Virus record (IMG/VR): IMGVR_UViG_3300028840_004786
Source: a virus
Reading direction: 5' to 3' (one strand)
Length of the DNA: 64,000 bases
The translations under genes and the position numbers were made by a program. The notes under the pieces were generated by a model, which saw only the letters and a program-made list of their open reading frames with translations, made no database searches and was not told the DNA's origin. Each line of letters begins with the position of its first letter. Positions within the stretch are counted from its first letter, which is position 1. Shown here one piece after another: positions 8,218-37,100 of the stretch.

Positions 8218-8226
8218 TGTTATAAT
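8218..8226 (+). promoter_or_regulatory. candidate extended -10 promoter TGTTATAAT
   Basis: ATGTTATAATA lies in the 37-nt gap after dnaE. Confidence 0.35.
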
Positions 8227-8250
8227 AATATAACAGAAAGGAGTAAATTA

Positions 8251-8637: not shown

Positions 8638-8642
8638 TTACT

Positions 8643-10795: not shown

Positions 10796-10835
10796 CTTAT
10801 AACTTAACTATCCCCCCTTGCGTTAGGAGAGAAAA

Positions 10836-20714: not shown

Positions 20715-20716
20715 GA

Positions 20717-21064: not shown

Positions 21065-21210
21065 TTTTGATCCTCCCTCGTATAGGAACGAATTACTTCT
21101 TCGCGGTCAAATGACTCTATTTCTTCGCGGTCAAATGACTCTATTTCTTCGCGGTCAAAGACACGTGTTGCTTCCTCTCGATCAAAGACAACTTCCACAT
21201 CCGTTGCCAT
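21061..21210 (-). CDS. 49-aa acidic repeat protein (FDREE x4)
   Basis: MATDVEVVFDREEATRVFDREEIESFDREEIESFDREEVIRSYTREDQK. Encoded over 24-nt tandem repeats at 21097-21160. TAATG and ATGA overlaps with both neighbours. Below the track cutoff. Confidence 0.5.
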   Translation of the reverse strand: MATDVEVVFDREEATRVFDREEIESFDREEIESFDREEVIRSYTREDQK

Positions 21211-21404
21211 TATACTTTACTCCTATCATAAGAACGTTCGATTTTATCAACATTAAAAACACGAGTTATTTTTTCTTTCGTAAAAACCCATTTTGCTTTA
21301 ACAAAAAGAAAGACCTGAAACAATCCACGCTTACAAATAATCCCTTGAGTCATCATACTCTCTGGATTTGAAATTCTTCCCTTTGTTATTAAGCATAAAC
21401 TCAT
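21210..21404 (-). CDS. hypothetical protein
   Basis: 64-aa ORF with an ATGA overlap to the upstream fibre-like gene. Confidence 0.4.
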   Translation of the reverse strand: MSLCLITKGRISNPESMMTQGIICKRGLFQVFLFVKAKWVFTKEKITRVFNVDKIERSYDRSKV

Positions 21405-22228
21405 ATCGTTGTAGTTGTACTCGTTGTAGTTGTACTCGTTGTAGTGGTTGTGGAAGCATAAACTCTTTCACAAATATATTCAACTTGCTGCTGTCCCGAC
21501 CACTGAGCCGTAGCCTGATAAGTTGCAACAAGATCAGCCCCTGTTGCTTGCGAAACTGGTTTATTATAAAGCCTCAACCTTGCCGAAGTTAACAATGATT
21601 GACCTTGATAAACAGTATATTGCTGTTGATCAATTTTAATATTCTCCTGCATCAATCCAAGTGCCCTTTTTAACTCTGTTTCCATATCAACAATAGAAGC
21701 ATCTATTGAAGATATAGAAACATTAATAGAGGAGATATTAGTATTAATTGTTGAAATATTAGTATTTATAGTCGATTGATCATTTTTTATATTTAATAAT
21801 GCATCACTTTCTTGTTGAGTCAAACCGCTCGTTCCAGTCTCAAGTGCAAAAGCATCGGCTGGTACGGTATCACGAACGTTAACAGTATAACCACCTTGTG
21901 TTTTTAACCATGGATCACCGCCACCATCAACGAGAAGATAAGCATTGATAAGATATAATGTATGATCTGCTTCGTATGGCCTCATAAGCCAACCGAATTT
22001 TAAAAAAACATATTTTCCAAGGTATCTAACATTTGGAATAATTGTGTTTCCACCAACTGGCTGATAGAACGGGAACTTAAACTTATTCAAAGTACTATTT
22101 ACTTTCCAGTCGTACTTTGCTGCGCTGTAAATATCCTTAGCAACGTCAAGTGTTAAGGTTCCGCCCACTGGAGCCGTTGTGACATACATTATCCTGTTGA
22201 TGGTATCATAGTCAATATGAGTTGCCAT
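21401..22228 (-). CDS. tail-fibre-like protein with C-terminal poly-Thr tail
   Basis: The N-terminal module shares NSTLNKFKFP with 22658-24559. Contains the repeat INTNISTINTNISSINVSISSIDASI and ends ASTTTTTSTTTTSTTTTI. Confidence 0.6.
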   Translation of the reverse strand: MATHIDYDTINRIMYVTTAPVGGTLTLDVAKDIYSAAKYDWKVNSTLNKFKFPFYQPVGGNTIIPNVRYLGKYVFLKFGWLMRPYEADHTLYLINAYLLVDGGGDPWLKTQGGYTVNVRDTVPADAFALETGTSGLTQQESDALLNIKNDQSTINTNISTINTNISSINVSISSIDASIVDMETELKRALGLMQENIKIDQQQYTVYQGQSLLTSARLRLYNKPVSQATGADLVATYQATAQWSGQQQVEYICERVYASTTTTTSTTTTSTTTTI

Positions 22229-22240
22229 GTCACCGCTCTC

Positions 22241-22645
22241 TTATTTATTTCGCTTTGCGTAATCCAACTCAAGCGCCTTCATTCTATCATGACGCTGCTT
22301 AGGACTTAGATCAAGAGGAACTGAAACTCGCCTAATTACTTGATCCCATTTTGCCCAAACACTTTCAATCCTAATAACAATCCAAAAAGGATTTTTACCT
22401 CTTATATCCCATGTGTCAGCAAAATGACCCCATCCCTCGAATCCTGGAAGCCCTTCAATAAATTTCTTGAATCCTTTTGGGGCTCCGGTTGCAGAGACAC
22501 CTTCAAGTGCTTCAGTTCGAAAACGAAAACACCAATATCTCGCTCGCCGATGGGTTGTCCTTCCAGGAGTCTCTGACTTAAGATCAGAACCAACTAATAT
22601 CTGACCTTTAAAAAACGCAGATTTCTTCTTTTTACTTCTTTCCAT
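22241..22645 (-). CDS. hypothetical protein between fibre genes
   Basis: 134-aa ORF with GGAGGAG upstream. Confidence 0.5.
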   Translation of the reverse strand: MERSKKKKSAFFKGQILVGSDLKSETPGRTTHRRARYWCFRFRTEALEGVSATGAPKGFKKFIEGLPGFEGWGHFADTWDIRGKNPFWIVIRIESVWAKWDQVIRRVSVPLDLSPKQRHDRMKALELDYAKRNK

Positions 22646-22657
22646 GACTCCTCCATA

Positions 22658-24559
22658 TTACGTGGTTGTCGTCGTTGTAGTAGTTGTGGTTGTAGTGGTT
22701 CCAGGATTAAGATAGACACGCTCATCCGGTGCATTAACTGGAAATGAAAGCCCAGTGGTTGCAGTTATTGTAAATTCAGCAAATGTCCATTCACTTGCTC
22801 TTAACCCTTGGGCAACAATTACTACAGGTGCATCTTCACCAGAATCTCTTCCACCTTGAACATTATTGTCATAGTCAAAGTCAAACGATATACTTGACTG
22901 ATTAACGACACCTTGAATTGGGCTTGGCCCAGCATTATCATTTACAACAATCGCATCCAACGAATCAAATGGTTTTTCTTCAACCGTAACTGTGTCACCT
23001 GCTGTTTCATTAACCTGCGTACGACCAAGAACGTCATCATAGTCAACTGCCAATGTTGCAGGTGTTCCAGTCGCCTGTTTCAAACCATTGTTTGCCTCAT
23101 TCGTACTAAATCCAGCAATGGTGAAGTAATCATTAGCAGTCAAGTTACTAAAGTCACCATTTGATGCCGACGATAATGTTGCACTCGAGCCGGAGGCACC
23201 AGTAATTGAATAATCATCAGACGAATAAGCTCGAACATTCCTAAAATACATTCGATAAAGAGTGTTTGCATTTTTCTCGTCAACAAGATTATCACTGAAA
23301 ATCATGGATCCAGCTGCAACAAACGGATATGTTCTTTCAGTCGAAGTATTTGGAACGTCTTCACTATCCAAACCATAAGATGCCCCAACACCAACTGTAA
23401 TATCATGAAGAGCAATGTCGTTTGTAATGTTTGTATCAAAGTCATCAAAGCAAACTCCAGGCCAGCTATGAAGCGTATCACCAACATAGTAACAAAGCCG
23501 AACTGCAACCTCACCGTATACTGTCCCGTAACCATCGGTTTCTGGATCGTCGTTAATATTAGTGGATTTACGAAGTCGCTGTTGACAGAACTTATATATC
23601 TCATCTCTGTCGGGCCCAGTAGCCACGCCATTGTACTGCACTGCACGGTTAAACGCGTAGTAATTACTACCTATCTGCCGTTCACCAGGATAGGCTTCCC
23701 ACGTTGCTGTTCCACTAAACGAAGCCCATGGACCACTTTCTCCACCAGTAATCGTTCCGTCTCCAGTACAACGAGCCCAACGACCATCACCGTCCTGGAC
23801 AACATCATTAGTAACATAACTTTGAACTGCAGCAGGAGCAAACAATTGACCCTTGTAGTACTGGAGCTCCATATCTTGATAAGGATCATTTGCACCGTCG
23901 ATGTAAGCTTCCGTTGTTCCAGTATTTTTAATATCATCTTCATTTGAAAGTGGAAGCCTATAGGCAATATAAGTCAATGCCGAATAACCTTGCTCTGTCA
24001 ACAAGTTATAGTCATCGTAAGTGCGTTGCCACATCCGGAGATAACATTTCAAGAAATCGCGGAAGTCATTGCTTCCGCCATCAAAGATTTGAATTGCTTC
24101 ATCCAGAGGCCCAGTTTTATCAAAATCTGTTGTGTTTTGATCAAAGCCTTGTGTCTGTTGATAATTCGCCTGTTGATTATCATCGTATTGACCACCAAGC
24201 GAAATAATACAAGCATGCTCGGCACCATCTGTTTCCTGCCAGCCTGCATCACGCACAAGATCACGAGTTTGAGAATTCGCCGGACCCCAACCATATTGCC
24301 AAATAAACTTTGCCTCATAAATTGCCTTTATTGGAAACTTGAACTTATTAAGAGTTGAATTCGACTTCCATTCTTCTTTGAGAAAAGAATAGAGGCACTG
24401 CATAGTAACACCACTTTCAGAACCCGGATTGTTATCGTTCAAGTTTCCAGCAACACGTAGTTCTACAGTTTTCGCTGCTGTAACAATCGCGACTTCTTCG
24501 GTTGTTGGTGTACCATCCACATCCAATGTCAATTGATCAGGATCGACTATTTTAGCCAT
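22658..24559 (-). CDS. tail fibre / receptor-binding-like protein with C-terminal poly-Thr tail
   Basis: 633 aa. The N-terminal module is paralogous to 21401-22228. Ends NPGTTTTTTTTTTTTT. Confidence 0.6.
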   Translation of the reverse strand: MAKIVDPDQLTLDVDGTPTTEEVAIVTAAKTVELRVAGNLNDNNPGSESGVTMQCLYSFLKEEWKSNSTLNKFKFPIKAIYEAKFIWQYGWGPANSQTRDLVRDAGWQETDGAEHACIISLGGQYDDNQQANYQQTQGFDQNTTDFDKTGPLDEAIQIFDGGSNDFRDFLKCYLRMWQRTYDDYNLLTEQGYSALTYIAYRLPLSNEDDIKNTGTTEAYIDGANDPYQDMELQYYKGQLFAPAAVQSYVTNDVVQDGDGRWARCTGDGTITGGESGPWASFSGTATWEAYPGERQIGSNYYAFNRAVQYNGVATGPDRDEIYKFCQQRLRKSTNINDDPETDGYGTVYGEVAVRLCYYVGDTLHSWPGVCFDDFDTNITNDIALHDITVGVGASYGLDSEDVPNTSTERTYPFVAAGSMIFSDNLVDEKNANTLYRMYFRNVRAYSSDDYSITGASGSSATLSSASNGDFSNLTANDYFTIAGFSTNEANNGLKQATGTPATLAVDYDDVLGRTQVNETAGDTVTVEEKPFDSLDAIVVNDNAGPSPIQGVVNQSSISFDFDYDNNVQGGRDSGEDAPVVIVAQGLRASEWTFAEFTITATTGLSFPVNAPDERVYLNPGTTTTTTTTTTTTT

Positions 24560-24605
24560 TTAACTACCTCCAAAAAATAATAATAATAAAAGTTGTAATT
24601 CAATA

Positions 24606-26909
24606 TTACGTGGTAGTGGTTGTAGTAGTCGTTGTAGTCGACGTCGTTGTACAAGCATAAGTAACATTGGCATCCTTTCTTTGTTGTACAGGAATTGAAG
24701 CATCTTGATTCCCGAGTATTTCATCTTCGTATGCTATGAACTCATAACACACATGATGAATATGGATATCAACTGTTACTGGACCACCGTAAATATATGA
24801 ATAGTTAGTTTCGCCATTGGAACCTACATCCTCAACATGAAATATCTCAACGCTTCCTTCCATATAAGTTACTTCAGTTCCGGGTTTCAAGCCTGTTAAA
24901 GTATGAGTTCTCTGTACTGCCGGAATATATTGTGTACCATCATCCGCAGTAAAGTATTCAACAGTACCAGAACCTCTTTTTGCCAACCAAACACCTTCCG
25001 TCAAGTTGACATTTCTTTCCGTATAATATCCAGCCGCACCAGAATATAGTAATTGTGATTGCTCATCCTCACCCCAAATGACTATATCAAATATTTGACT
25101 ATAGGTATCTGGATCACTCGCCATAAAAGCAGCTAAATAATCATAAACAGTTTGTAACGATTTATTATCACAGTCAACAAGCCAAGTATATTCTTCGTAA
25201 AAGCCTGTTACATCAGCCTTCGCTGAAAATGAAGATACACTTCCAGTCAAAGTATAACTATCATTATCAACAAATTCAGTTCCATTCCAGGCCTTTAAAA
25301 CAAGAGTTCCAGAAGTAGCATCACCAAGATATTCTACTACAACACCATTCGCACCAGTTGTACTTTGAGTTATAGTCTCGCCAGCACTTGGAACACTACC
25401 CGTTCCTTGATCGTACTTAAGAACTTTTAATGGACGTGGATCGGTTTCACCTGTCGCATGGCGAGTCATAGTTATTCCACTTCCATTGCTCAAAGCAGTT
25501 GCTTGAGTTGTTTCAGAAACCCCAGTATCTGTTGTAAGCCCTATCGGCTGATCTATAGCTTCGGTTACAGTTAAGGCGCCAAGGAATGGGGAATAAGCGT
25601 GTTTATAAATATGAAGAGCAAAGTCACCACTTGTCTTGACATCAAGACCAACACCACCGTCATTAAATATTCTCTTTAGAATATCTACACTCCATTCTCC
25701 ATTTGAATCAGTGGCTCCATAATGCGGAACATTTTTATTTCTCGTTCCCTCGTATATATGGATTCTTGCTGTTTGTATTGCTGCACCAGCTGGGGTTGTC
25801 ACTATTGTGTCAAATGAAAATAACTCATGAACATATTCCTTTTTAGCATCAACACCGCCAGAAGTCGTTGTAGTTGTCGTACTTGCAAGAGATGCAGAAA
25901 AAAGTATATCATTTTGTGAAGAAATATCAGGATTCCAAGTTGGATTTACTACTTTCCATTTCTTATTATTATAAACCTGAATATATCTTTGCAAATTAAT
26001 AAACGAAACATTCTTGATAGTTATAGTGTCATCCACATCGTCATCAGAAGTAGTAAAACCATAACAATCAACAATATTTAATTCCTGAATATCAGTACTT
26101 CCATCAACCAATAAATAATCATTCGAAGTTCCTATTCCTTGTAATAGACTATCATATATTTCAATAACTCCAGTCATATCACAAGTATAGAGCCCTTTAA
26201 ATATCTTCGCTCTACGAAATACTACAGTCCCATTAAATTCCGTTTTATTATTTTTTACGCACGACATAAAGAAGTCATACAAATAAGCCAATCCACCACT
26301 TTGAATATCAAAAGCGAACTCTCCATCAACTGCTGGTGTCGGGACTATATAACCACCAGAAACAGGTTTTCCACCCGATAGAAATCCAACATACAGTGTT
26401 CCACCGCTGTAAACAATAATATCAGCTACGGTAGTACTACTATTATCTGCAGTCTCAATACTATGGCCGTCAAGTAAAGCTAATCCACCACCACTACTAA
26501 CTTCAATAATATCAGAGGCAGCCCAATCAGTAACTCTTTTCAAAAGTTCCTTGAAGGCATTTCCTTTACTATCCAAGTCCGTTGTTCCATATGGAATATG
26601 ATAAGTATCAGTTGAAGATGGTTGAACATCCCAATCTTCATGAACAGTACATGTAACAGGCCCACTTCCACTTTCAGCAATAATGTAACGAACTTCTTCA
26701 TCTGCATCACCCTTGCGAACATGGACAAGCCTCCCGACATAACTTGCAGTTCCATCTGTCGGAGGCCCAACAACATTCCCATTATTATTAGTGCCCATCG
26801 GATTTGAAAAAATTATTTCATCCGCTGCGGCAGAAGCTTGACTTGGTAATGCTTCACCAGTACTGTCTTTAGCATATGTAGTACAATCTAATGGATTGGC
26901 TATAGCCAT
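24606..26909 (-). CDS. large fibre/spike-like protein with internal and C-terminal poly-Thr tracts
   Basis: 767 aa, rich in Gly/Thr/Ser/Val (beta-rich). Internal STTTTTTSGG tract. Ends CTTTSTTTTTTTTTT. Confidence 0.55.
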   Translation of the reverse strand: MAIANPLDCTTYAKDSTGEALPSQASAAADEIIFSNPMGTNNNGNVVGPPTDGTASYVGRLVHVRKGDADEEVRYIIAESGSGPVTCTVHEDWDVQPSSTDTYHIPYGTTDLDSKGNAFKELLKRVTDWAASDIIEVSSGGGLALLDGHSIETADNSSTTVADIIVYSGGTLYVGFLSGGKPVSGGYIVPTPAVDGEFAFDIQSGGLAYLYDFFMSCVKNNKTEFNGTVVFRRAKIFKGLYTCDMTGVIEIYDSLLQGIGTSNDYLLVDGSTDIQELNIVDCYGFTTSDDDVDDTITIKNVSFINLQRYIQVYNNKKWKVVNPTWNPDISSQNDILFSASLASTTTTTTSGGVDAKKEYVHELFSFDTIVTTPAGAAIQTARIHIYEGTRNKNVPHYGATDSNGEWSVDILKRIFNDGGVGLDVKTSGDFALHIYKHAYSPFLGALTVTEAIDQPIGLTTDTGVSETTQATALSNGSGITMTRHATGETDPRPLKVLKYDQGTGSVPSAGETITQSTTGANGVVVEYLGDATSGTLVLKAWNGTEFVDNDSYTLTGSVSSFSAKADVTGFYEEYTWLVDCDNKSLQTVYDYLAAFMASDPDTYSQIFDIVIWGEDEQSQLLYSGAAGYYTERNVNLTEGVWLAKRGSGTVEYFTADDGTQYIPAVQRTHTLTGLKPGTEVTYMEGSVEIFHVEDVGSNGETNYSYIYGGPVTVDIHIHHVCYEFIAYEDEILGNQDASIPVQQRKDANVTYACTTTSTTTTTTTTTT

Positions 26910-27100
26910 TACTTATCCTTTATCTTGATTTTAAATTCTTTTTTAAGAATTTCAAGTTTTTCAGGAGCAAATTCTTTTTCTCCACGCATACATTTACTCA
27001 CATTTATAGAAGACATATCAAGTGCTTCAGCAAGAGCATTAAATGGAATCCGTTCGGCTTTTAATTTTTTCATTACCTGTTCAGTTATTTTAACTTTCAT
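26909..27100 (-). CDS. small helix-turn-helix-like protein
   Basis: The 63-aa sequence IPFNALAEALDMSSINVSKCMRGEK resembles an XRE-type HTH. Confidence 0.4.
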   Translation of the reverse strand: MKVKITEQVMKKLKAERIPFNALAEALDMSSINVSKCMRGEKEFAPEKLEILKKEFKIKIKDK

Positions 27101-27315
27101 TCTTTTTCTCCAGTAGTCATTTTACTCTTGCTAATTGTTCCAACTGTAAGCCTATGTTTTCCGAAGTCAAATTTCTTTGTTGCCCAAAAACCTGAATGCT
27201 CATCAGAACCTTCCGTATAAATGAGCAAGTTAACCATTATAAGTCCTTTTTTATGCTCCCTTAGAACTTCGTACATTTTATTCAGCATCTGATCCAATTG
27301 GTTACTGACAGGCAT
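27097..27315 (-). CDS. hypothetical protein
   Basis: 72-aa ORF coupled to its neighbours. Confidence 0.45.
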   Translation of the reverse strand: MPVSNQLDQMLNKMYEVLREHKKGLIMVNLLIYTEGSDEHSGFWATKKFDFGKHRLTVGTISKSKMTTGEKE

Positions 27316-27316
27316 C

Positions 27317-27889
27317 TCACCACCTCATAAAAAGTTTTTTCTGTCTCCAAATATGATAAACATAAAGTCCGGGCATCCTGTAATGCCTATAACCAGCCCG
27401 ATTAAGAGCTTGGCTATATTTATTATCTACACCGAGAAGTCTTTTCCTATTTTCATCAAACCCACCGCTTTTTCTCCATGCAGTTTTGTTAGTTAAAATC
27501 CAGAAACCCGACATTGCTCCTTTACATCTTTCAACTTTACTGCCGTACTCTTCGTAAAGTTTTCTTGCAAAAGAGAAATGGTCTTCAAGATTATTTGACT
27601 TTGGTGCATCTTTTGCTTTTTGTGCTGGGTTCCCTATTCTGTTTGTAACAGCCGATATCCAGCCGACAGGTTCACCCTTGAGTTGTTGAACAGCCGAACA
27701 GCACATTGTATACCAATGCTTATTAACAAGAAACAAGTCATGATCAATAAACAGAACCCATTCCGTTGTCGCTCTTTCCATTGCTCTATTATAAGCGCAT
27801 GCAAGCTGACCATTCAAGTCATATGGTATCTGTACTTGAATTGGTTCACGAATTGAAGAAACAGAATAAAATTTGTTGTAATTTTCCAT
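27317..27889 (-). CDS. glycosyltransferase family 2-like (GT-A)
   Basis: LACAYNRAMERATTEWVLFIDHDLFL matches the GT2 pattern (..A.N.g...a..e.i.flD.D). Confidence 0.6.
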   Translation of the reverse strand: MENYNKFYSVSSIREPIQVQIPYDLNGQLACAYNRAMERATTEWVLFIDHDLFLVNKHWYTMCCSAVQQLKGEPVGWISAVTNRIGNPAQKAKDAPKSNNLEDHFSFARKLYEEYGSKVERCKGAMSGFWILTNKTAWRKSGGFDENRKRLLGVDNKYSQALNRAGYRHYRMPGLYVYHIWRQKKLFMRW

Positions 27890-27891
27890 CC

Positions 27892-28575
27892 TTATCTCCT
27901 TTCAATATGTGAACTATCCTTAATTGGATAGTTTAAAAATTCCGACAGGCGTTTGCAAGTTCTTCCAGTTCTGCCGAGAAGATCATCCCTGAAATCAACC
28001 TGAAGAATTTTTAGTCTATTATAATAACCAACATAATAAAGGTAGTAATGACTCTTTCCATAATACTTCATAGACAATTCAACAAAGTGGTCTTTGTACT
28101 TTTCTTGATTACCCCTCTTTCTCATTGAATGCGCAATATCATCCGCATTTCTTCTCATCCAAATGATTCTCAAATCATTTAATAAATTAAGCTCTTTGAT
28201 AACTTCCATCCAAGGATAAAGAGTCAAAGAAGTTCTTGGGTCTTTCCAGCCCCAATTTTTAAATTCCGAGTTATATTCAATAATAAGTCCACGCATAATT
28301 TCGAGAACTTTATTATCTGCTTCACTTCCGTTCAATGGGTATATCATTGGTATTGCTGGAGAAAATGATTTAACTCTATAACCGTGCATTTTAAGAATCC
28401 TATCATTTATTCTTCTGAAACGGACATTCTCCCAAAATCCTTTTGGATTTTCTTTTATCGGTGGGGGATAGAATTCCTTTTTCTCTTCTCGACCCATAAC
28501 AATACCATTTTTATGTAAAAGCCCAGACATCGCCGATGTCCCGCTTCTGTGCATCCCAAGAACTACGACTATCAT
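27892..28575 (-). CDS. sulfotransferase-family protein
   Basis: N-terminal VVLGMHRSGTSAMSGLL (PAPS 5'-phosphosulfate-binding loop-like) followed by NPKGFWEN, as in bacterial sulfotransferase-family proteins. Confidence 0.55.
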   Translation of the reverse strand: MIVVVLGMHRSGTSAMSGLLHKNGIVMGREEKKEFYPPPIKENPKGFWENVRFRRINDRILKMHGYRVKSFSPAIPMIYPLNGSEADNKVLEIMRGLIIEYNSEFKNWGWKDPRTSLTLYPWMEVIKELNLLNDLRIIWMRRNADDIAHSMRKRGNQEKYKDHFVELSMKYYGKSHYYLYYVGYYNRLKILQVDFRDDLLGRTGRTCKRLSEFLNYPIKDSSHIERR

Positions 28576-29120
28576 AATAACTCCCGCGTAATTTTAGTTA
28601 TATGCCATATCGGGCCAGTAATTTTAACCCGATCACCAAACTTCTCATCTACTGCTTCAATGACACCATAACTTGGTTTATTAGTATAATCATCACCACA
28701 AAAAAGGCCATTCACTTTTAGTTTCGGCCACCAAACTTCAATATCTCGTTTAACGAATTCATAACCATGATTAGCGTCAATAAATATAAAGTCAAATTCA
28801 TAATCAGAAAATAACTCAGCCGCATCCTCACTTTTCATTTGTAAAGTTATTACTCGTTCACCAAAAGATTTTATATTTTCATCAAATCTTCTTCTTACTT
28901 TATTCCAATCAGCGTTATATATCTTTCCTTTCTTATTTGGTGAATGCGATTTAAATTCTTCATTATCTTCCCAAATATCCACGCAAACCAAACCCTTAAG
29001 AAGTGGAAATGATTCTAATAAAACTTTGGAGGTATCACCTTCAAATACACCAATCTCAGCCCCATTATGGTGCGATCTATTCTCCAACAGCCTTTTTAAT
29101 ATCTTGCCGTTCCTCGACAT
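28572..29120 (-). CDS. class I SAM-dependent (O-)methyltransferase, Methyltransf_24/TylF-like
   Basis: Contains GAEIGVFEGDTS (motif I) and FDFIFIDANHGYEFVKRDIEVWWPKLKVNGLFCGDDY. Start at 29120 (GGGAGG upstream) or 29135. Confidence 0.6.
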   Translation of the reverse strand: MSRNGKILKRLLENRSHHNGAEIGVFEGDTSKVLLESFPLLKGLVCVDIWEDNEEFKSHSPNKKGKIYNADWNKVRRRFDENIKSFGERVITLQMKSEDAAELFSDYEFDFIFIDANHGYEFVKRDIEVWWPKLKVNGLFCGDDYTNKPSYGVIEAVDEKFGDRVKITGPIWHITKITRELL

Positions 29121-30315
29121 CTTGCCTCCCTTCAAAATCAGGCTTAATATCTTTTCTCCAAGTACTCGTAGTCAATATTTTATCCATAATGATTGAATCT
29201 TTATATGGAATAATTGATTCCATAATTGAAGAAAGTTCCTTTTCATCTACAAGAATTGGATTAAGCCCTAATTCCAAAAATTTTTTATTATCCAGCGAAA
29301 GAATATTTTCTGCCATTTCTAATCTTGGATTCTTATAATATCTTATCTCCGTTCCGTTTATAGAAGATACTCTTTCGGCAAGTTGTTTCAAGTTCAATTG
29401 CTCTGTTGTTTGATTAAATATCTTTACTCCTTCACCCTTTTCAGGTGGGTTATTAACTGCTTTATCTATGCATCTTAAGGTGTCACGGATATGTATAAAA
29501 GCACGAGTCTGTCCACCAGTCCCATATACTGTAAGCGGATGACCTGCAATAGATTGAACCATAAACCGATTCAACACCGTTCCAAAATCACCATCATAGT
29601 CAAATCGATTTATAAGATCATTATGCATACTCGTTTCTTCAGTTTCAAGACCCCAAACAATCCCCTGATGCAAATCGGTTATACGAAGTAAATCATTTTT
29701 ACTGTAATATTGAAACATTATTCCATCAATTACTTTTGTCATATGATAAATACTTCCAGGCTGGGGCGGAAACATTATCTTCCTTGTTATCTCATTTTTA
29801 TTTCTATCCGCCATTACAGCATCAATGTAACCTTCTGGAATAAGAAAGTCTTCATTCCCACCATATCCATAAACTCCAGTAGAACCGAGGTGAATAAGAT
29901 GTGAATCAAGTCCAAGTGAAACAAGAGCACATAAAACATTGTGCGTTGAAAGAATATTATTGCGCACAGTATACAGCTTGTGAGCCGCATCTTTCATACT
30001 ATAAGGCGCAGCTCTTTGCTTTGCGAAGTGAATAATTATTTCGGGTTTTTCTTTTCTAAGAACATCCTTCAATCCATTATAATTTGAAGCGATATCTACA
30101 CGTTTGAAGGTGAAATTACTATGAGTCAAGCGACGCCACCTTTTAACCCTTTTTTCCATCGTCTGTATTGGTGTTAAACTCGGGCATTCAAGTTCGGCCT
30201 CAATCGTTCTTCGACTAAAATTATCCACGATGACGACAGTGTAGTCACGAGCGCTGAAATACAGGCTTGTAGGCCATCCACAATATCCGTCACCGCCAAG
30301 AACCATTATCTTCAT
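29077..30315 (-). CDS. sqdB: UDP-sulfoquinovose synthase (SQD1/SqdB/Agl3 family SDR)
   Basis: Collinear matches to remembered SQD1 motifs: VLGGDGYCGW, VDNFSRR, SLTPI, RW, HFAKQRAAPYSM, HLGSTGVYG, EGYI, YHMTKV, TDLHQGIVWGLETEET, NRFDYDGDFGTVLNRFMVQSIAGHPLTVYGTGGQTRAFIHIRDT and FNQTTEQ. Confidence 0.85.
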   Translation of the reverse strand: MKIMVLGGDGYCGWPTSLYFSARDYTVVIVDNFSRRTIEAELECPSLTPIQTMEKRVKRWRRLTHSNFTFKRVDIASNYNGLKDVLRKEKPEIIIHFAKQRAAPYSMKDAAHKLYTVRNNILSTHNVLCALVSLGLDSHLIHLGSTGVYGYGGNEDFLIPEGYIDAVMADRNKNEITRKIMFPPQPGSIYHMTKVIDGIMFQYYSKNDLLRITDLHQGIVWGLETEETSMHNDLINRFDYDGDFGTVLNRFMVQSIAGHPLTVYGTGGQTRAFIHIRDTLRCIDKAVNNPPEKGEGVKIFNQTTEQLNLKQLAERVSSINGTEIRYYKNPRLEMAENILSLDNKKFLELGLNPILVDEKELSSIMESIIPYKDSIIMDKILTTSTWRKDIKPDFEGRQDVEERQDIKKAVGE

Positions 30316-31133
30316 AATCCTGCCTCCTTTTTAAACTTTTCGACACAATCATCTTTTGCAAGTTTATGAACGTTTCCAGTCCAAATAATATCACCCTTCT
30401 TATTTCTTCCAGGCAATCCAAAAGACAAGGGTAATGTTCCATAATTTAGCTTTCGCTCAACCTCCTTAAAAGCAAGCCAACAGCTTGCTTGGCCATAACC
30501 AATAGGTCTTTCTAATGGCGGAACTTTATCAATGTAGTGAATCCATCGATCAAAGAAAAGTCGAACATCATTTGCTGGTTTAATCAAAATACAGTCAATT
30601 GTTATTCGGGCTTTTACTATATTATGTCCCGGACGAAGTTTCAAATAAATATTAACATCTTCCAACATTTTTGGAACCATGTCGAGTGGTTTCCTAAATA
30701 AGGTATCTATATCAAAATGGGCAATATATTCCAAATTAAATCCCGCCCACTTCGGTGACTCATTCTCCGGTATTTTCCAAGAGTACAATAACTTATTTAA
30801 CGATTTTACTCTATCATCACCAGCTATCATTAGCTTCCATACCTTATTTTTATTACTCACATACCTCCCCTCGCATTGTTTTTTAAACGTTTGAAGCTGT
30901 TTTAATGTTACCCCAGCCTTTAAAGCTAATCGTTTCATATTTAAAGGCTGGTTATTGATGTGAAGTAATTCTCGCGGATAACTGGAATACAATAATTCCA
31001 TATCTTCAAAAGATAAACTCCTACCCTCCAGCCAGACAGGTAAATAGTAAGGGGCTGATACCATGCGAAGACTTTTGAGAAATACTTCACCCATCTTAAC
31101 AAATCCGTTTGTTAAATAAGAATGTACTAACAC
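30312..31133 (-). CDS. hypothetical protein, possibly a nucleotide-sugar transferase (DxD-like FDIDT)
   Basis: 273-aa ORF inside the glycan cassette with an AHFDIDTLF motif. The functional call is weak. Confidence 0.3.
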   Translation of the reverse strand: MLVHSYLTNGFVKMGEVFLKSLRMVSAPYYLPVWLEGRSLSFEDMELLYSSYPRELLHINNQPLNMKRLALKAGVTLKQLQTFKKQCEGRYVSNKNKVWKLMIAGDDRVKSLNKLLYSWKIPENESPKWAGFNLEYIAHFDIDTLFRKPLDMVPKMLEDVNIYLKLRPGHNIVKARITIDCILIKPANDVRLFFDRWIHYIDKVPPLERPIGYGQASCWLAFKEVERKLNYGTLPLSFGLPGRNKKGDIIWTGNVHKLAKDDCVEKFKKEAGL

Positions 31134-32416
31134 TATTCCACCTCCTTTTCCACAGGCTGAAGTGGAACTGTGTTAGCAAGCCTTGATGCTTCTTCAAGAA
31201 GTGGTTTAAATTGAGTAAACCATATCCTTTCAAAGCTAAATGCCCAACGATGTCTAACATCAGGAAGTCGCGGAACTATTTCCCGCGATGCAAGTAAATC
31301 AAAATAGATATTTTCATCCGGATGATAGTTAACCATTTGAAAGTCACCAGTTTTTCCGTCTTCTCTTCCAGGAGTCTTGAAGCTAAAATCAACATAGATA
31401 GCCCTGTAATCTTTACGTGCTAATTCCTGTAAACAAGGCAAGTTCTTATTAAGGATAAGGAGATTATCCGTTATTTGAGCCTCCTGAAAAGCATTGCCAG
31501 TTGTCTCACGCCAGCTGGAGAAAACGAAGATATTTGATATCTTTAAAAGATCACGAATAACTTTTCTCGGCATCGGTTTATAAGTATCAATATCGTGCGT
31601 GAACATATAGTCTTCGTTTTCAATTAAGCCTTTACTTTCCATGAAAGCCTTTTTTTCTTTGATCTCCATCTGAACTTTTCTTGCATTCGCATTCGCGAAA
31701 ACAATTCCGACAGAAATTCCAATTCTTTTAAGTGCCGACATTACATTGATTACACCGTCTATTCCCTTCGCGTCCATGCGAGTACTACAATGGGGGAAGA
31801 TACAAACGGCTTCCTTATTCCATAATTGAAGGTTGTGAATAATCTTCACACTAAATGGATGCATATCAAAAAAGACACGTGGATCCTTTGGATTATGAAC
31901 GACCCTTATATTATCCATCGTTGTCTCGTACATTTGCTGAAGGTTCGGTGCCTCGGCCTCATTAAGATAGACAAGAAAACTTCTATCCATCATAGTATAA
32001 CGAAGTGATTCTGGATGACGAAGTGTTCCAGGTCTTTGTGTCCACGATGAATGAATCCAATGACACCACCATGCTTTGATCTCCTTTGCGGCATTTCTCA
32101 TTGCTTGGTTATAAGCAAGAAAGTTCCCTTTCCGTTGATAGATAAGATCGGCAGTCAACACAACATCAAAGTCATGAAGTAATTCAATATACTGTTCTGT
32201 AAATTGCTCAACCTTAAATTCAAACGGACGGCTTCCGGGGATTGTCTTCAGTATTGAATATTGGTTTGGATACAACCCGTCCGGACAATTTTTGGCAGTA
32301 AAAAAAGTGAAGTCAATTCCGAAGTACTTCATCATGACTGCACGTTCGTGCCATCCAACTGCAAGTGCATAGCTCGGGGCGAAACTTTGAAAATGTGATA
32401 AGATTGCTACCTTCAT
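31133..32416 (-). CDS. GT-B glycosyltransferase (GT4/GT1-like)
   Basis: 427 aa. VFSSWRETTGNAFQEAQITDNLLIL resembles the C-terminal E..G....EA motif of GT4 enzymes. It is the first gene of the cassette. Confidence 0.5.
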   Translation of the reverse strand: MKVAILSHFQSFAPSYALAVGWHERAVMMKYFGIDFTFFTAKNCPDGLYPNQYSILKTIPGSRPFEFKVEQFTEQYIELLHDFDVVLTADLIYQRKGNFLAYNQAMRNAAKEIKAWWCHWIHSSWTQRPGTLRHPESLRYTMMDRSFLVYLNEAEAPNLQQMYETTMDNIRVVHNPKDPRVFFDMHPFSVKIIHNLQLWNKEAVCIFPHCSTRMDAKGIDGVINVMSALKRIGISVGIVFANANARKVQMEIKEKKAFMESKGLIENEDYMFTHDIDTYKPMPRKVIRDLLKISNIFVFSSWRETTGNAFQEAQITDNLLILNKNLPCLQELARKDYRAIYVDFSFKTPGREDGKTGDFQMVNYHPDENIYFDLLASREIVPRLPDVRHRWAFSFERIWFTQFKPLLEEASRLANTVPLQPVEKEVE

Positions 32417-32487
32417 TTTTTTCTCCTTTCATCTTTTATAGTTACGGAACTTAATGAACCGTACAAAATAAAAACAAATGTTGAGTT

Positions 32488-32516
32488 ATTATAACACTTT
32501 AAATAAGTAATGACAA
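32488..32516 (-). promoter_or_regulatory. near-consensus sigma70-type promoter for the glycan cassette (TTGTCA-N17-TATAAT with TG extension)
   Basis: Minus-strand reading: TTGTCA (32516-32511), a 17-nt spacer, then TATAAT (32493-32488) preceded by TGT. It lies in the 107-nt gap upstream of 32416. Confidence 0.55.
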
Positions 32517-32523
32517 TACATCT

Positions 32524-34140
32524 TTAACTTGTGTTTAACGAACCACTTGCAATATACCAAGGAGGTTCCATTGGTGTTTCAGTCGTTCCAGTTGTAGTGG
32601 TTGCAGTCGTAGTGGTAGTGGTTGTAGTGGTTGTTTGGTAATCAGCTGGCGCTGGGGCATCATTAGTTAAACCAACACCAATAGAAAAGTAATCAACACT
32701 TGTCGCATCACCATTATAACTACCTAATCCAACATTACCGCTGACACCGGAATGAGCAGAATCTGTTACTTGAATCCCCCATGTTCCAGGTTCATCACTT
32801 GGTTGCCCTTGCCAAACTTTTGCTTTTAAATTATTTCCACGTACTTGAAACCGAACCCAATACCAATAGTTTTCAAAAGTTTTACTACCAGTCGCACCTA
32901 TTTGACTTGCTGAATTACTTACCCATTTATAAATTTTGAAATTATCATTACTTGGATATAATCTTAACTCATATGCATTTTTGTTACTATTACCACCTAC
33001 TTCACGAACAACTATTTTAAAATAATCCTGCCCAGCAATTGGATAAAGATCACCAAATTGAACTTTAGCAAGTATATCTACATTTTCTGCAACACCTATA
33101 TCATTCCATCTTGCATAATAGTGTCCATAAGTACTATGATCAATAAGAAGATATTTTCCACCATACTGGCCTCCATCATCTTTAACTGTTATACTTGAAA
33201 CAGGTGACTCCCATAATTCTGTCCAATCAGAGGGCGACTGATCAGCAGTATATTCATTAAAGTTAGTCCAGTAATCTTCTTCGGTTGTCGTAGATGTAGT
33301 TGTTCCAGTAATAGTTGTTGTGGTAAATGTAGTTGTAGTGGTTGTACTGGTTGTTGTAGTGGTTGTTATATAACCAGATGGAACAAGTATAGGCCAATCA
33401 TCTGAATTGCTTTCAGCAAGAAAATGATCACAGAAAGTATCCGCATTAAAAGTAATAACCCCAACTTCACCAGAAGAAGTAATTGGGGAGCCATCAGTAT
33501 AATCAATATCCCATGTTCCAGGTTCGGAATCTTGTTTTCCCCAAACACGAATTTTTATAACGGACCCTTGTGCACGAAGCCTCACCCAATACCAACGATC
33601 CGCTGTTATTGTTTTTGAAGCACTTGTCAGTCCAGTATTTACTCCATTATTATATCTTCGCAAAATAATATCATCATTGGCAACATCAAGATGTGCAACA
33701 TATCCGGTTTCACTACCTCCAGCACCGCTTATTCTGCACCCAACACCACCAGCCAGTGTAGCAAAAGAATTCTTTGCCTGGACGAGGGCAAGTACTTCAA
33801 TATCTTTCTTACTTATCACATCATTGATGACAGCCACTTTTGCATTACTGGATATATCAAGACTGAGACTTTTATCCTTACCGACAGCTTCAACAGTAGT
33901 ATCAACATTTACTGTATCCCAGCTTTCAGTCCAGCCAGATGGAGGACTACCAGTTCCCATCCCACTAAAATCTTCTTCCCATTCATGTGTAGTAGTGGTG
34001 GTCGTAGTGGTGGTCGTAGTGGTGGTCGTAGAAGAAGTCTGGAACTCAACCTGACCAAGAATTTGTGTAGCTTCCTGAAAAGGACCTTCCTCATACTCAA
34101 CCTGACCAAGAATTTGTGTAGCTTTTTGGATATCAGCCAT
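32524..34140 (-). CDS. fibre/decoration protein with two LamG/concanavalin-like modules separated by poly-Thr linkers
   Basis: N-terminal duplication ATQILGQVEYEEGPFQE/ATQILGQVEF. Three Thr tracts. Duplicated modules WTESWDT...WYWVRLRAQGSVIKIRVWGKQDSEPGTWDI and WTELWES...WYWVRFQVRGNNLKAKVWQGQPSDEPGTWGI. Confidence 0.55.
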   Translation of the reverse strand: MADIQKATQILGQVEYEEGPFQEATQILGQVEFQTSSTTTTTTTTTTTTTTHEWEEDFSGMGTGSPPSGWTESWDTVNVDTTVEAVGKDKSLSLDISSNAKVAVINDVISKKDIEVLALVQAKNSFATLAGGVGCRISGAGGSETGYVAHLDVANDDIILRRYNNGVNTGLTSASKTITADRWYWVRLRAQGSVIKIRVWGKQDSEPGTWDIDYTDGSPITSSGEVGVITFNADTFCDHFLAESNSDDWPILVPSGYITTTTTTSTTTTTTFTTTTITGTTTSTTTEEDYWTNFNEYTADQSPSDWTELWESPVSSITVKDDGGQYGGKYLLIDHSTYGHYYARWNDIGVAENVDILAKVQFGDLYPIAGQDYFKIVVREVGGNSNKNAYELRLYPSNDNFKIYKWVSNSASQIGATGSKTFENYWYWVRFQVRGNNLKAKVWQGQPSDEPGTWGIQVTDSAHSGVSGNVGLGSYNGDATSVDYFSIGVGLTNDAPAPADYQTTTTTTTTTTATTTTGTTETPMEPPWYIASGSLNTS

Positions 34141-34157
34141 TAATCAATCTTTTTATT

Positions 34158-35216
34158 TTAAGTAGTCGTTGTAGTTGTTGTGGTTGACGAAGTACTTGTC
34201 ATTTGAATTGCACGGGTTCCAATTTCAATCGCATTTATATCTGCCTCTTGCCAAGCCTCGGAATCATCGGGGTTTACAGCCCATATCTTTCTAAAATTTG
34301 CAACCGCAATTCCTGGAGTAAATCGCCCACTATAATAATTAGATCCATTTACTCTAATCGCCAACTTTTGTTTATTTGGGGCTGGGTCACCTTCGTATAG
34401 TAATCTTCCTTGAAGCTGTAACGCTTTTACTTTTCCAACATTTCCAGTCATATCAGCACAAGCGAATGTAGCTAATTCCCCCGGAACATTTGTTGATATA
34501 TAATCAGAATCACTATATGGTATTTCATCAACACACGCATATGGGTCTCCAGCACTTGCATCCCATTCACCAGTAGTTCCAGCCCCACTTATTTGAAGTT
34601 TTTGTATACGAGTATTTCCCGGCCATTCGCTATCATCAATGACTACATCATCAAACTCACTTTGATAGTTATCAACACCATTGGCGCCAATTCTTACCTT
34701 TTTAATATTCTCAAGTCCCGCCGTAGTATCCCCACTATAATCACATTCCAGTGGTGTCTGATTATCCAGCTTTACTTGAAATATTCCACCAGTATTTAAT
34801 GGTTTATAACGTACTTGAAGTAAATGAACAGTTCCAGGTGTAATTTCAGTTGCCCCAGTTTCAAGAATGGTTCCTGAATTTTGCGCCCCAAGCATAAGCC
34901 GAACATAAAAATATGTTGAGCCATCATAGTAAAAAAACAAAGAACCTATTGCAGTAAGTGCTGAATCATAAAAACATATGGTTCCGGGTCCATTTCCACT
35001 TCGAACTACCGGATAAATTTTTAATGCAACATATAATTCGCTATATGTTTGATCCAGTGTTATATCGCCATAAGCATATCCAGAATTAAATTTCATATCA
35101 TAGGCTCCACTGAATCCAGCCATAGCACCGGCATTTACTTGAAGGCCACTCTGGGAAGTAAATAATAGAGTATTTACATTCCCATGTTCACCGCCTTCTA
35201 TAAATATTCTTGCCAT
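34158..35216 (-). CDS. virion protein (jelly-roll-like) with C-terminal poly-Thr tail
   Basis: 352 aa, ending MTSTSSTTTTTTTT. Confidence 0.5.
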   Translation of the reverse strand: MARIFIEGGEHGNVNTLLFTSQSGLQVNAGAMAGFSGAYDMKFNSGYAYGDITLDQTYSELYVALKIYPVVRSGNGPGTICFYDSALTAIGSLFFYYDGSTYFYVRLMLGAQNSGTILETGATEITPGTVHLLQVRYKPLNTGGIFQVKLDNQTPLECDYSGDTTAGLENIKKVRIGANGVDNYQSEFDDVVIDDSEWPGNTRIQKLQISGAGTTGEWDASAGDPYACVDEIPYSDSDYISTNVPGELATFACADMTGNVGKVKALQLQGRLLYEGDPAPNKQKLAIRVNGSNYYSGRFTPGIAVANFRKIWAVNPDDSEAWQEADINAIEIGTRAIQMTSTSSTTTTTTTT

Positions 35217-35227
35217 CTTTAAACTCC

Positions 35228-35764
35228 TTACACCGTCGTTGTAGTGGTAGTGGTTGTAGTGGTTGTGGTGGTTGTAGTTGTCGAAGTACTCATACCTTCA
35301 GCATCTGGACGATACATAATAATATTCCAACTTATATCCTGTAAAACAGAATCAGCCGGATTTGGTGCATACAATTCAAGTAAATCGCCATTATAAAATG
35401 TCACATCTGACGATACAGTAAATGCACCAAAGTTGTGCCCAGGATTTGTTAATATTGTACCTATCGATGACCCATTTCTCTTTAGGGTAAAAGTCTTCGG
35501 CCCATCACCTGGAGGCGTTCCAATATACAATTTACTTCCCGGCGCATTAGCTTTTAAAACCATATAACGACCAATAACTGCCCTCATTATAAGGCCATTA
35601 CTATTCGGCGTATCTCCAAGATATTGACCGGAATAATCATAGTACTTTGGAAGATGAAGTGCTTTAATTGCAGCATCAAGCTCACCAAGTGGTGCACCCA
35701 TATCAGCTTCCTTAAATTCTGTTGTTCCATCAACATATGCTGTATGATAGAATTCACTCATCAC
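35228..35764 (-). CDS. small fibre-like protein with C-terminal poly-Thr tail
   Basis: 178 aa, ending STSTTTTTTTTTTTTTTTV. Confidence 0.5.
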   Translation of the reverse strand: MMSEFYHTAYVDGTTEFKEADMGAPLGELDAAIKALHLPKYYDYSGQYLGDTPNSNGLIMRAVIGRYMVLKANAPGSKLYIGTPPGDGPKTFTLKRNGSSIGTILTNPGHNFGAFTVSSDVTFYNGDLLELYAPNPADSVLQDISWNIIMYRPDAEGMSTSTTTTTTTTTTTTTTTTV

Positions 35765-35973
35765 GAACCTCCAAGTTTTTCTACAAAAGTCTCCAGCATA
35801 TCCTTAACCATCGGATTTTGTTTTATCACTGGGCTTTCGAGGATTGGATTTACTGCTTCTGAGAAATTGATTCTTTTCGAAGAAGGAAAATTATCAATTA
35901 TCAATTCCAAAAGTGAAGTAATGTAATCAAGCTTCTTGTCAATTTCCAAAAACTTTTCTTCAAAATTACTCAT
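35761..35973 (-). CDS. hypothetical protein
   Basis: 70-aa ORF overlapping both neighbours by 4 nt. Confidence 0.45.
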   Translation of the reverse strand: MSNFEEKFLEIDKKLDYITSLLELIIDNFPSSKRINFSEAVNPILESPVIKQNPMVKDMLETFVEKLGGS

Positions 35974-37100
35974 ATCGGGTCTCCACCTGAATCAAGTAAA
36001 CGAATTACAATTAATGTTGTCAAAGGAGTATAATCTTCAAACTCTATCTTTAGAAATGGGGGTATCTCCGGGGTTTCTGTTTGATCACGCTGGTAGTAAA
36101 AAGTAACACTACTTCCACATACTTTTGTTGCACTTGAAGCCCAACCACCAGAATCAGTATTACTCACCAACCCAGTTCCATTAATAACACTGAATGTTGC
36201 AGTTACACTTATCGGACGAGAAAAATCATATTGATCCTTTATACTAAATGTAAAAGAAGCTGTTGGATAATTTGTACCTCCATCCCATTCCATCTCAAAA
36301 CTTCCATCACCTTGCTTAATAGCACTCGTAATGGAAACCGTATTTGCCTTTGGTTCAGTCCATTCAACCCCTATATCAGCTGAAGATATAGAAGTCATTC
36401 CAGAATAAATAAAAAGATAACCAATTAAAATATGATCAGCAGGTATAGATGGCTTCGTTGGTGCACCTGCAGTAATACTTCTTGAAGTACCTTCAACAAC
36501 ATCAACAACACCATTTATTCCTATAACAAGAGCATCATACCGAGCAGATGTTCCAGCTGGGGCAGCAGATATAGATATCGAAGTTGCCGTATCATAAAAC
36601 CCCATAGTAAAACCTGAACCCATAGTCATTGGGGCTGGATCATCCATCACTATATAACCAGTTGCCGCTATACTATATGTATAAAGAGTGCCATCAATTC
36701 TATATGTTCCATCATTTACTATGACGTTCATTCCACCGCCGGAATATTCCAATATCTCCATTCCACTAACTATTCCATTTTCAAGCTCCGATGCTGTTGG
36801 AAGTAAATCTCCTTCAACTGGTGAAGGTATTGCTCTTCCATGACCAACTACTTCAATAAACCCCGGAACACCTGAACGATGTCTTATTCTGACAGCATTC
36901 CCTTTTTTTAACCAAGTCGGTATCTTTTTCCAATTACGAGGATAATGGGCTTTTATCTGTGTATTACTACCTTGAATTTTAACTAAGGCGTAGTAATTCC
37001 CAGTATCAACATTCCATATAATTGCGTCACGATCAACAACCGAATATCTTTGAGCCTCTCTAAGACGCTTGGTAACGATATTTTTATTATATAGTCTCAA
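35970..37100 (-). CDS. tail tip / baseplate-associated protein
   Basis: 376-aa ORF immediately downstream of the large tail protein. Call based on position only. Confidence 0.4.
   Translation of the reverse strand: MRLYNKNIVTKRLREAQRYSVVDRDAIIWNVDTGNYYALVKIQGSNTQIKAHYPRNWKKIPTWLKKGNAVRIRHRSGVPGFIEVVGHGRAIPSPVEGDLLPTASELENGIVSGMEILEYSGGGMNVIVNDGTYRIDGTLYTYSIAATGYIVMDDPAPMTMGSGFTMGFYDTATSISISAAPAGTSARYDALVIGINGVVDVVEGTSRSITAGAPTKPSIPADHILIGYLFIYSGMTSISSADIGVEWTEPKANTVSITSAIKQGDGSFEMEWDGGTNYPTASFTFSIKDQYDFSRPISVTATFSVINGTGLVSNTDSGGWASSATKVCGSSVTFYYQRDQTETPEIPPFLKIEFEDYTPLTTLIVIRLLDSGGDPI

Follow-up and report, generated by a model that had tools for sequence, protein, structure and literature searches.

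Sulfoquinovose is, to our knowledge, a sugar met almost only as the headgroup of the photosynthetic sulfolipid and as a constituent of one N-glycan of Sulfolobus. In streptococci, the serine-rich-repeat adhesins are O-glycosylated in the cytoplasm on their Ser/Thr repeats, with initiation by the GT4-type proteins GtfA/GtfB and elongation by GT8 enzymes such as GlyE. In Sulfolobus acidocaldarius, sulfoquinovose produced by the SqdB-family enzyme Agl3 is built into a protein-linked N-glycan and not into a lipid (PMC4388408). Among viruses, a metagenomic contig of a Mu-like virus from the Cariaco Basin carries a putative UDP (uridine diphosphate)-sulfoquinovose synthase that was read as glycosylation-related, with a proposed effect on host N-glycosylation and protein stability; that report describes no cassette, transferase partners or acceptor tags (PMC7785012). 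As summarized in PMC12363180 (citing Freeman et al. 2023), the mycobacteriophages Che8, Corndog and Myrna attach sugars to proteins of the capsid and tail tube by means of glycosyltransferases that they encode. The present analysis concerns a UDP-sulfoquinovose synthase homologue (the sqdB homologue) encoded at 29077-30315, on the minus strand of a 64,000-nucleotide stretch of the IMG/VR virus record IMGVR_UViG_3300028840_004786 (the whole stretch being referred to hereafter as the window), together with the six-gene cassette in which it lies and the poly-threonine (poly-Thr) tags on virion-module proteins of the same phage.

Compared with bacterial SqdB, plant SQD1 and archaeal Agl3, the phage protein is collinear over its full length, at 40-55 % identity, and shares the Ser/Thr-Tyr-Lys set, His183, Arg101, Gln209 and the NR.DYD..FGT.LNRF block; it differs in that its gene does not lie beside SqdD/SqdC orthologues, its neighbours being virus-restricted GT8-like and GT4-like transferases, a methyltransferase and a sulfotransferase, and in having Thr146 where most family members have Met. 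Whereas the Cariaco virus is Mu-like, the present phage is DnaE-encoding, siphovirus-like and ~88 kb in size. With the mycobacteriophages it shares phage-encoded cytoplasmic glycosyltransferases proposed to modify virion proteins, the tail tube included; however, the passages cited mention neither a sulfosugar nor a methyltransferase, a sulfotransferase or a comparable nucleotide-sugar synthase in those phages, and the likeness is drawn from description. The Agl3 pathway is archaeal and N-linked, with assembly on a lipid carrier and transfer outside the cell, whereas the linkage proposed here would be made directly, as an O-linkage to Thr, in the bacterial cytoplasm. The streptococcal adhesin system resembles the phage cassette in using soluble GT-B and GT8 enzymes, with GlyE among the structural (Foldseek) matches of one cassette protein, but there is no detectable sequence homology, the phage acceptors would be virion proteins with near-pure Thr tails, and a sulfosugar would be among the donors. 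A reading made from the letters alone (the sequence-only reading) had supposed that a sulfoquinovose donor pathway in a virion-decoration context would be new. For the gene by itself this went too far, given the Cariaco copy (PMC7785012) and the IMG/VR homologues described below; a search of the literature turned up no report of a viral glycan with sulfoquinovose in it, and the novelty seems to lie in the combination of a sulfosugar donor pathway, a conserved, virus-restricted transferase set and encoded poly-Thr tags on many virion proteins.

All of the SQD1 motifs listed in the sequence-only reading are present in the 412-amino-acid (aa) product and are collinear, namely GGDGYCGW (residues 7-14), VDNFSRR (30-36), SLTPI (46-50), HFAKQRAAPYSM (96-107), GSTGVYG (144-150), YHMTK (190-194), TDLHQGIVWGLETEET (213-228), NRFDYDGDFGTVLNRFMVQSIAGHPLTVYGTGGQTRAFIHIRDT (236-279) and FNQTTEQ (300-306). 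In a phmmer search of PDB sequences, the top match is Arabidopsis thaliana SQD1 (1qrr, 1i24 and 1i2b; E 4.7e-94), with residues 2-388 aligned to 3-384 of 1qrr, and the next matches are generic epimerases and decarboxylases of the short-chain dehydrogenase/reductase (SDR) type, at ~1e-8 or weaker; this gap of ~86 orders of magnitude excludes chance or generic epimerase similarity. Pfam recognizes the generic Epimerase family only, and the NCBIfam model NF041015 (UDP-sulfoquinovose synthase) matches end to end at E 4.9e-98, against 1.6e-13 for GalE. The NF041015 score, 328.6 bits, lies below the curated equivalog cut-off of 575, which was considered as evidence against function and dropped, because the proven Arabidopsis SQD1 (484.7 bits) and homologues from the cyanobacteria Nodosilinea and Tildeniella and from Rhodovulum and Brevundimonas (335-344 bits) fall below it as well; the cut-off thus delimits a narrow subgroup and is uninformative on the phage enzyme. 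Identity is 40 % to A. thaliana SQD1 (BLASTP) and 55 % to the SqdB of a Rhodovulum sqdB-sqdD-sqdC operon. On this sequence evidence the open reading frame (ORF) encodes a true SQD1/SqdB/Agl3-family protein and not an ordinary epimerase, as the sequence-only reading had it.

The active site was assessed in an alignment of 156 family sequences, at the positions named for SQD1 and those mutated in Agl3 (PMC4388408). The phage enzyme keeps GxxGxxG (GGDGYCG, 7-13), H96, R101, S145, Y149, S188, Y190, H191, T193, K194 and Q217, as well as the NR.DYD..FGT.LNRF...GGQTR block, and its S145, Y190, H191 and K194 align to T145, Y182, H183 and K186 of SQD1. His183 is reported to be a functional residue of SQD1 (Mulichak et al. 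1999). Roles have been assigned to the catalytic Ser/Thr145-Tyr182-Lys186 set, and the Agl3 T144A mutant retains full activity (PMC4388408); the replacement of T145 by Ser in the phage enzyme is a conservative change. Alanine mutants of Agl3 at His95, Arg101, Met145, Glu147, Tyr148, Ser180 and Thr185 are inactive or impaired (PMC4388408), and at these positions the phage enzyme keeps the His, Arg, Tyr, Ser and Thr and has Thr for Met and Val for Glu. Val148 occurs in 151 of the 156 aligned sequences and Thr146 also in the enzyme of the Rhodovulum operon; neither substitution need speak against function, and the other substrate-binding and catalytic positions checked are kept in at least ~95 % of the 156. 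The phage enzyme very probably makes UDP-sulfoquinovose.

The sqdB homologue is the third of six abutting or overlapping genes, which are translationally coupled and are given here in the order of transcription, after the site that precedes them.

32488-32516, minus strand: promoter-like site in the 107 bp that precede the cassette, TTGTCA-17-TATAAT with TG (a consensus match only)

31133-32416, minus strand: divergent GT4-like glycosyltransferase (GT-B, retaining-type), 427 aa (phrog_2170 glycosyltransferase, E 1e-8; AlphaFold2 model and Foldseek)

30312-31133, minus strand: GT-A glycosyltransferase with a GT8-like fold and the DxD motif HFDIDT, 273 aa, candidate sulfoquinovosyltransferase (AlphaFold2 model and Foldseek)

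29077-30315, minus strand: UDP-sulfoquinovose synthase homologue (SqdB/SQD1/Agl3 family), 412 aa, ATG start (PDB SQD1, NF041015 and active-site residues, as above)

28572-29135, minus strand: S-adenosylmethionine (SAM)-dependent methyltransferase, Methyltransf_24 (PF13578, E 2.7e-17; also matches a PHROG labelled DNA methyltransferase)

27892-28575, minus strand: sulfotransferase of the 3'-phosphoadenosine 5'-phosphosulfate (PAPS) type, 227 aa (PF13469 Sulfotransfer_3, E 1.7e-7, full length)

27317-27889, minus strand: GT2-like glycosyltransferase, 190 aa (phrog_14179 and phrog_26101 glycosyltransferase, E 2e-8; weak Pfam GT2 matches below the curated cut-off)

The promoter-like site scores 11/12, the best in 20500-37500. 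The AlphaFold2 model of the 427-aa protein, with a mean predicted local distance difference test score (pLDDT) of 94.1, is matched by Foldseek to MshA (E 2.4e-13) and then to WaaG, BshA and HepE, all retaining GT4 enzymes; its family has 121 members, some with PF00534, found only on contigs of up to 105 kb. A 546-aa relative of this protein (P0304) is fused to a Methyltransf_24 domain, a fusion that makes transferase and methyltransferase functionally linked. The 273-aa protein has no match in Pfam, NCBIfam or PHROG; its model (pLDDT 93.9) resembles the retaining GT8 transferases glycogenin, XXYLT1, LARGE1, LgtC and GlyE (5gvv), with E values of 6e-8 to 2.5e-6 and template-modelling (TM) scores of ~0.5, and its family comprises 188 unannotated proteins, all on contigs of up to 304 kb and with the DxD motif HFDIDT invariant. 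Searched against PDB sequences, the profiles of the 273-aa and 427-aa families give chance matches only. The longest methyltransferase ORF, from a TTG start, overlaps the 3' end of the sqdB homologue by 59 nt (29077-29135); the true start is probably near 29120, and public assemblies call a protein of 182 aa. Near its N terminus the sulfotransferase has GMHRSGTS, and further on RRNADDIAHS, which we take to resemble PAPS-binding motifs. All six proteins lack a clear membrane segment, with one borderline hydrophobic window in the 427-aa protein. The three glycosyltransferase genes are flanked by tail-fibre-like genes on one side and by more genes of the virion module on the other, all of them on one strand.

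The same order (GT4-like, GT8-like, SqdB, methyltransferase, sulfotransferase, GT2-like) occurs in the viral loci L002, L003, L007, L008, L009, L086 and L087, and from sqdB onward in L021, with local differences in L086, where the 273-aa gene precedes that of the GT4-like protein, and in L007, in which the last two are inverted. In a neighbour-joining tree, the cassette phages have their SqdB proteins in a single clade, which lies inside the bacterial SqdB group. Of 12 further viral loci with the 273-aa gene, 11 have it immediately upstream of the sqdB homologue (L002, L003, L007, L008, L009, L014, L030, L080, L081, L086, with the GT4-like gene in between, and L087), and this makes the GT8-fold product of the gene the prime candidate for the sulfoquinovosyltransferase; in the twelfth, L074, the counterpart is a 624-aa ORF further upstream. 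The methyltransferase adjoins the sqdB homologue in 12 viral loci, and the sulfotransferase and the GT2-like gene are each kept in 8.

Cellular relatives were drawn from a scan of 185,579 species genomes, which gave more than 597, and the best 80 of these, 51-58 % identical and including cyanobacteria and alphaproteobacteria, were examined as cellular loci. None of the cassette partners occurs in these 80 loci. By tblastn with Rhodovulum SqdD and SqdC as queries, orthologues of both lie directly downstream of sqdB in 12 of the 80, whereas neither is found in any of the viral loci. The Rhodovulum bhavnagarense operon consists of sqdB (7995-9218), the GT8 gene sqdD (9215-10048) and the SDR gene sqdC (10045-10914), and its SqdD matches PF01501; orthology of the 273-aa protein to SqdD was rejected, as hhalign of its family against Rhodovulum SqdD gave a probability of 2 %. 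Two cyanobacterial loci (L143, 9993-12461; L146, 10059-12422) have sqdB followed by 325-aa and 389-aa ORFs conserved between both, which by eye resemble a rhodanese and a YeeE/YedE-type membrane protein and may bear on the question of the sulfur donor for SqdB.

In IMG/VR, an alignment-based scan found sqdB homologues on at least 80 contigs; a scan with single-protein patterns found none. Two of the homologues, at 48 % identity, are in giant-virus metagenomic bins (GVMAG; L018, 10001-11164, and L019, 2902-4065). Immediately beside the other viral copies lie, for the most part, genes for methyltransferases, sugar-nucleotide SDR enzymes, GT8 and GT4 transferases and sulfotransferases, so that a glycan context is the rule for viral sqdB. 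A TET-associated glycosyltransferase (PF20691) is one of 135 such neighbours (loci L004-L081), a hint that the setting in that virus may be DNA modification. On the 88.6-kb contig Ga0675941_001233 (L088), a homologue at 58 % identity (P0020) shares a cluster of the polysaccharide type with genes for DegT, a number of SDR enzymes, a GT4/GT2 fusion and two sulfotransferases, and this cluster suggests that sulfoquinovose-containing polysaccharides exist in bacteria also.

The second line of evidence on the fate of the sugar is the distribution of poly-Thr runs, defined as at least six Ser/Thr residues of which at least five are Thr. In the window, 13 such runs occur in nine proteins, every one of them in the minus-strand structural module (21401-53287), and eight of the runs are at the extreme C terminus. 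The nine proteins are as follows.

52685-53287, minus strand: 200-aa protein in the head-gene region, without a PHROG match; run 184-200

44386-44958, minus strand: major tail protein, 190 aa (phrog_807, E 1.9e-18), ending in TSTTTTTTSTTTTS; run 177-190, candidate glycan acceptor

40877-41290, minus strand: 137-aa protein just after the tape-measure gene; run 125-136 of 137

35228-35764, minus strand: tail-fibre-like protein, 178 aa (phrog_7049 tail fiber, E 5.9e-11), with a 19-residue Ser/Thr tail; run 159-177

34158-35216, minus strand: 352-aa protein; C-terminal run 340-352

32524-34140, minus strand: fibre-like protein, 538 aa; internal runs 35-51, 259-271, 280-286 and 503-512

24606-26909, minus strand: 767-aa protein; internal run 343-350 and C-terminal run 754-767

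22658-24559, minus strand: 633-aa protein ending in 13 Thr; run 621-633

21401-22228, minus strand: 275-aa protein; C-terminal run 259-274, with tailed homologues in L002 and L087

The runs are encoded by a mixture of ACA, ACG, ACT and ACC codons, which rules out DNA slippage as their origin and points to selection at the protein level. The L002 and L003 homologues of the 178-aa and of the 352-aa protein are tailed as well, and homologues of the 538-aa protein, at 1000-1765 aa, have 5 to 11 poly-Thr linkers. Across that protein and its homologues (L002, 4437-7706; L086, 343-5640; L087, 534-5708), the linkers stand ~200-300 residues apart as length ranges from 538 to 1765 aa and linker number from 4 to 11. 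Five cassette-bearing loci hold 53 runs in ~86 kb; the other sqdB-bearing viral loci hold one in 1085 kb and the cellular loci seven in 1190 kb, none of them C-terminal. Among 42 viral loci with homologues of the 633-aa protein (27-80 % identity), poly-Thr tails are found in the one that has the cassette (L174, on the same contig as L002), and no C-terminal run is present in the other 41. Three cassette-less relatives are 68-70 % identical, and two of these (L171 and L173) share the gene order 767-633-134-275. Where they can be read, the cassette-less 633-aa homologues end in ...YLNP or ...YSNP, at which point the window protein continues with GTTTTTTTTTTTTT, and matches to the cassette-less relatives stop at residues 619-620 of 633 and 746-748 of 767. 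Several different virion proteins have gained Thr tails in the cassette lineage. The co-occurrence of tags and cassette gives strong circumstantial support to the earlier idea that the enzyme serves virion decoration.

In the mechanism proposed, the sqdB homologue would be expressed late, as part of an operon of soluble enzymes. Its product, an NAD-dependent enzyme of the bacterial SqdB type, would start with oxidation of UDP-glucose at C4 and loss of water to give the 4-keto-5,6-ene; sulfite from the host would then be added at C6 and the product reduced again. Together the six enzymes would assemble, in the cytoplasm, a short O-glycan of anionic character on the poly-Thr tags. Eight virion-module proteins, the major tail protein among them, would accept it at their C termini, and one fibre protein along the linkers between its domains. 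Of the transferases, the 273-aa protein with the GT8 fold is the one most likely to be the alpha-sulfoquinovosyltransferase; the GT4-like and GT2-like enzymes would supply further sugars, to be decorated in turn by the methyltransferase and PAPS sulfotransferase. Given cytoplasmic virion assembly and six soluble-looking enzymes, direct O-glycosylation of the tags is the most economical explanation. What we infer here are the sulfite-dependent activity, the assignment of donors to enzymes and the acceptor. We lean, if only slightly, towards the sulfoquinovose product ending up on the poly-Thr tags of the virion. The fuller proposal, that this phage lineage has a self-contained cytoplasmic O-glycosylation system which places a glycan of sulfoquinovose, methyl and sulfate groups on the poly-Thr tags of at least nine virion proteins, giving a mucin-like sulfonated coat to tail and fibres, is advanced tentatively, as a model with somewhat less than an even chance of being right in full.

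Several observations weigh against this interpretation. The association of tags with cassette is seen in one phage lineage, so that, for the cassette itself, perhaps one gain or one loss is all that is reflected. The relatives without the cassette are represented by incomplete contigs, and it could lie elsewhere in those genomes. In L008 and L009, where the cassette has a different context, the stretch available shows no poly-Thr runs, and the major head protein of the window is without a tag. In ~82 kb of the 87.7-kb genome covered by precomputed Pfam matches, no PAPS reductase or other source of sulfite, and no PAPS supply, was found. To these are added Thr146 and Val148 of the enzyme, at positions (Met and Glu) whose alanine mutants in Agl3 are inactive or strongly impaired.

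That the gene is phage-encoded, as had been stated from the sequence alone, is borne out by the large terminase (55776-57167), portal (54179-55765), major head protein (47026-47988), tape measure (41290-43827) and major tail protein (44386-44958) genes of the window, which are accompanied on the minus strand by genes for a scaffold-like protein and a neck protein. The plus-strand replication module encodes a DnaE-type polymerase with PHP and uracil-DNA glycosylase domains, RecA, a 5'-3' exonuclease, SbcCD-like proteins and ThyX. The identical genome is represented by contigs of ~87.7 kb in several public assemblies, and the window is from an uncultured, siphovirus-like phage of that size. The same Pfam matches, over ~82 kb, show no integrase, and a search for tRNA genes found none. 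Among 50,697 GenBank phage records, tblastn of the protein found no SqdB homologue at E <= 1e-5, and megablast of the 27-33 kb region found no match; the nearest cultured phages by tblastn are very distant, the major head protein being 38 % identical to those of mycobacteriophages and DnaE reaching 27-35 %. As these DnaE and head-protein searches did find distant relatives, the negative result on close cultured relatives is real. The polymerase (4830-8213, plus strand; 1127 aa) joins PHP, pol3-alpha and finger domains with a uracil-DNA glycosylase match (PF03167) in one protein, and a 70-aa protein matching the Hc1 histone-like family (PF07432) is encoded between the 5'-3' exonuclease and SbcC-like genes (~13468-13680, plus strand; 18639-18851 in L082).

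An alternative fate for the sugar is a lipid of the host. As an auxiliary gene, sqdB would act with the GT4-like or the GT8-like transferase to make sulfoquinovosyl-diacylglycerol (SQDG), for example sparing phosphorus for phage DNA. SQDG synthases come from the same two families, SqdD being a GT8 protein with a PF01501 match and SqdX/SQD2 belonging to GT4, and the phage enzyme nests among bacterial SqdB proteins, whose genes form sqdB-sqdD-sqdC operons in 12 of the 80 cellular loci. The sequence-only reading had found no SqdC/SqdD-like partners beside the gene; by sequence, the tblastn and hhalign results uphold this, but by fold it falls, there being an adjacent GT8-fold protein and then a GT4-like one, so that the absence of partners does not of itself exclude a lipid acceptor. 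Its broader view, that the context is glycan-building and not a canonical lipid operon, agrees with the three glycosyltransferases beside the gene and with the lack of SqdD/SqdC in the viral loci. SQDG requires no methyltransferase, sulfotransferase or third glycosyltransferase, the cassette lies in the late tail-fibre region, and a lipid product would leave the poly-Thr tags unexplained; this alternative is held to be unlikely.

An equally unlikely alternative is that the cassette modifies a polysaccharide, lipopolysaccharide or S-layer glycan of the host surface, against superinfection or re-adsorption of progeny to debris. Such remodelling is a common role of phage glycosyltransferases, as in the seroconverting phages, whose enzymes often alter the host surface, and the P0020 homologue lies in its polysaccharide-type cluster beside a sulfotransferase and the GT4/GT2 fusion. 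Yet the ~82 kb covered hold no integrase, the cassette is devoid of membrane proteins, flippase, polymerase and polyprenol-phosphate transferase, and its two main transferase families are confined to contigs of up to 304 kb and 105 kb; the poly-Thr tags would again go unexplained.

A further alternative is that the enzyme, though a family member, does not add sulfite but might release UDP-4-keto-glucose-5,6-ene or add another nucleophile, giving a different 6-modified sugar. Besides the Thr and Val substitutions and the sub-threshold NF041015 score, this would fit the release of the 5,6-ene by Agl3 when sulfite is absent (PMC4388408). However, both residues are present in the SqdB of a canonical sqdB-sqdD-sqdC operon, authentic SQD1 also scores under the cut-off and the remaining positions checked are nearly invariant, which leaves divergent chemistry with a distinctly small chance, below that of the lipid or surface proposals. 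Hypermodification of phage DNA, by which the cassette would put the sulfonated sugar on modified bases, is very improbable, for although one neighbour of another viral sqdB is TET-associated and the methyltransferase matches a PHROG labelled DNA methyltransferase, ThyX alone was detected and no hydroxymethyl-pyrimidine pathway, the cassette is in a late structural operon away from the replication genes, and Methyltransf_24 is a generic SAM-methyltransferase fold.

In this phage a known synthase is met outside its usual surroundings, in a glycosylation cassette restricted to viruses, and the proposal that the sulfonated glycan decorates the virion names candidate writers, candidate acceptors (the poly-Thr tails) and natural negative controls, in the form of close relatives without cassette or tails. 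Although the phage is uncultured, the model makes specific claims that recombinant proteins would put to the test, and a short peptide tag with a defined set of soluble enzymes could serve glyco-engineering. If true, it would provide, as far as found, the first sulfoquinovose glycoprotein outside the Archaea, the first sulfosugar in a virus particle and a portable pair of tag and writer. Virion glycosylation would then extend beyond the mycobacteriophages, and a strongly anionic sugar would join the surface chemistry of viruses, with a bearing on adsorption, aggregation and particle stability. The viral sqdB genes, now known from at least 80 IMG/VR contigs, would then not necessarily serve lipid synthesis or host metabolism.

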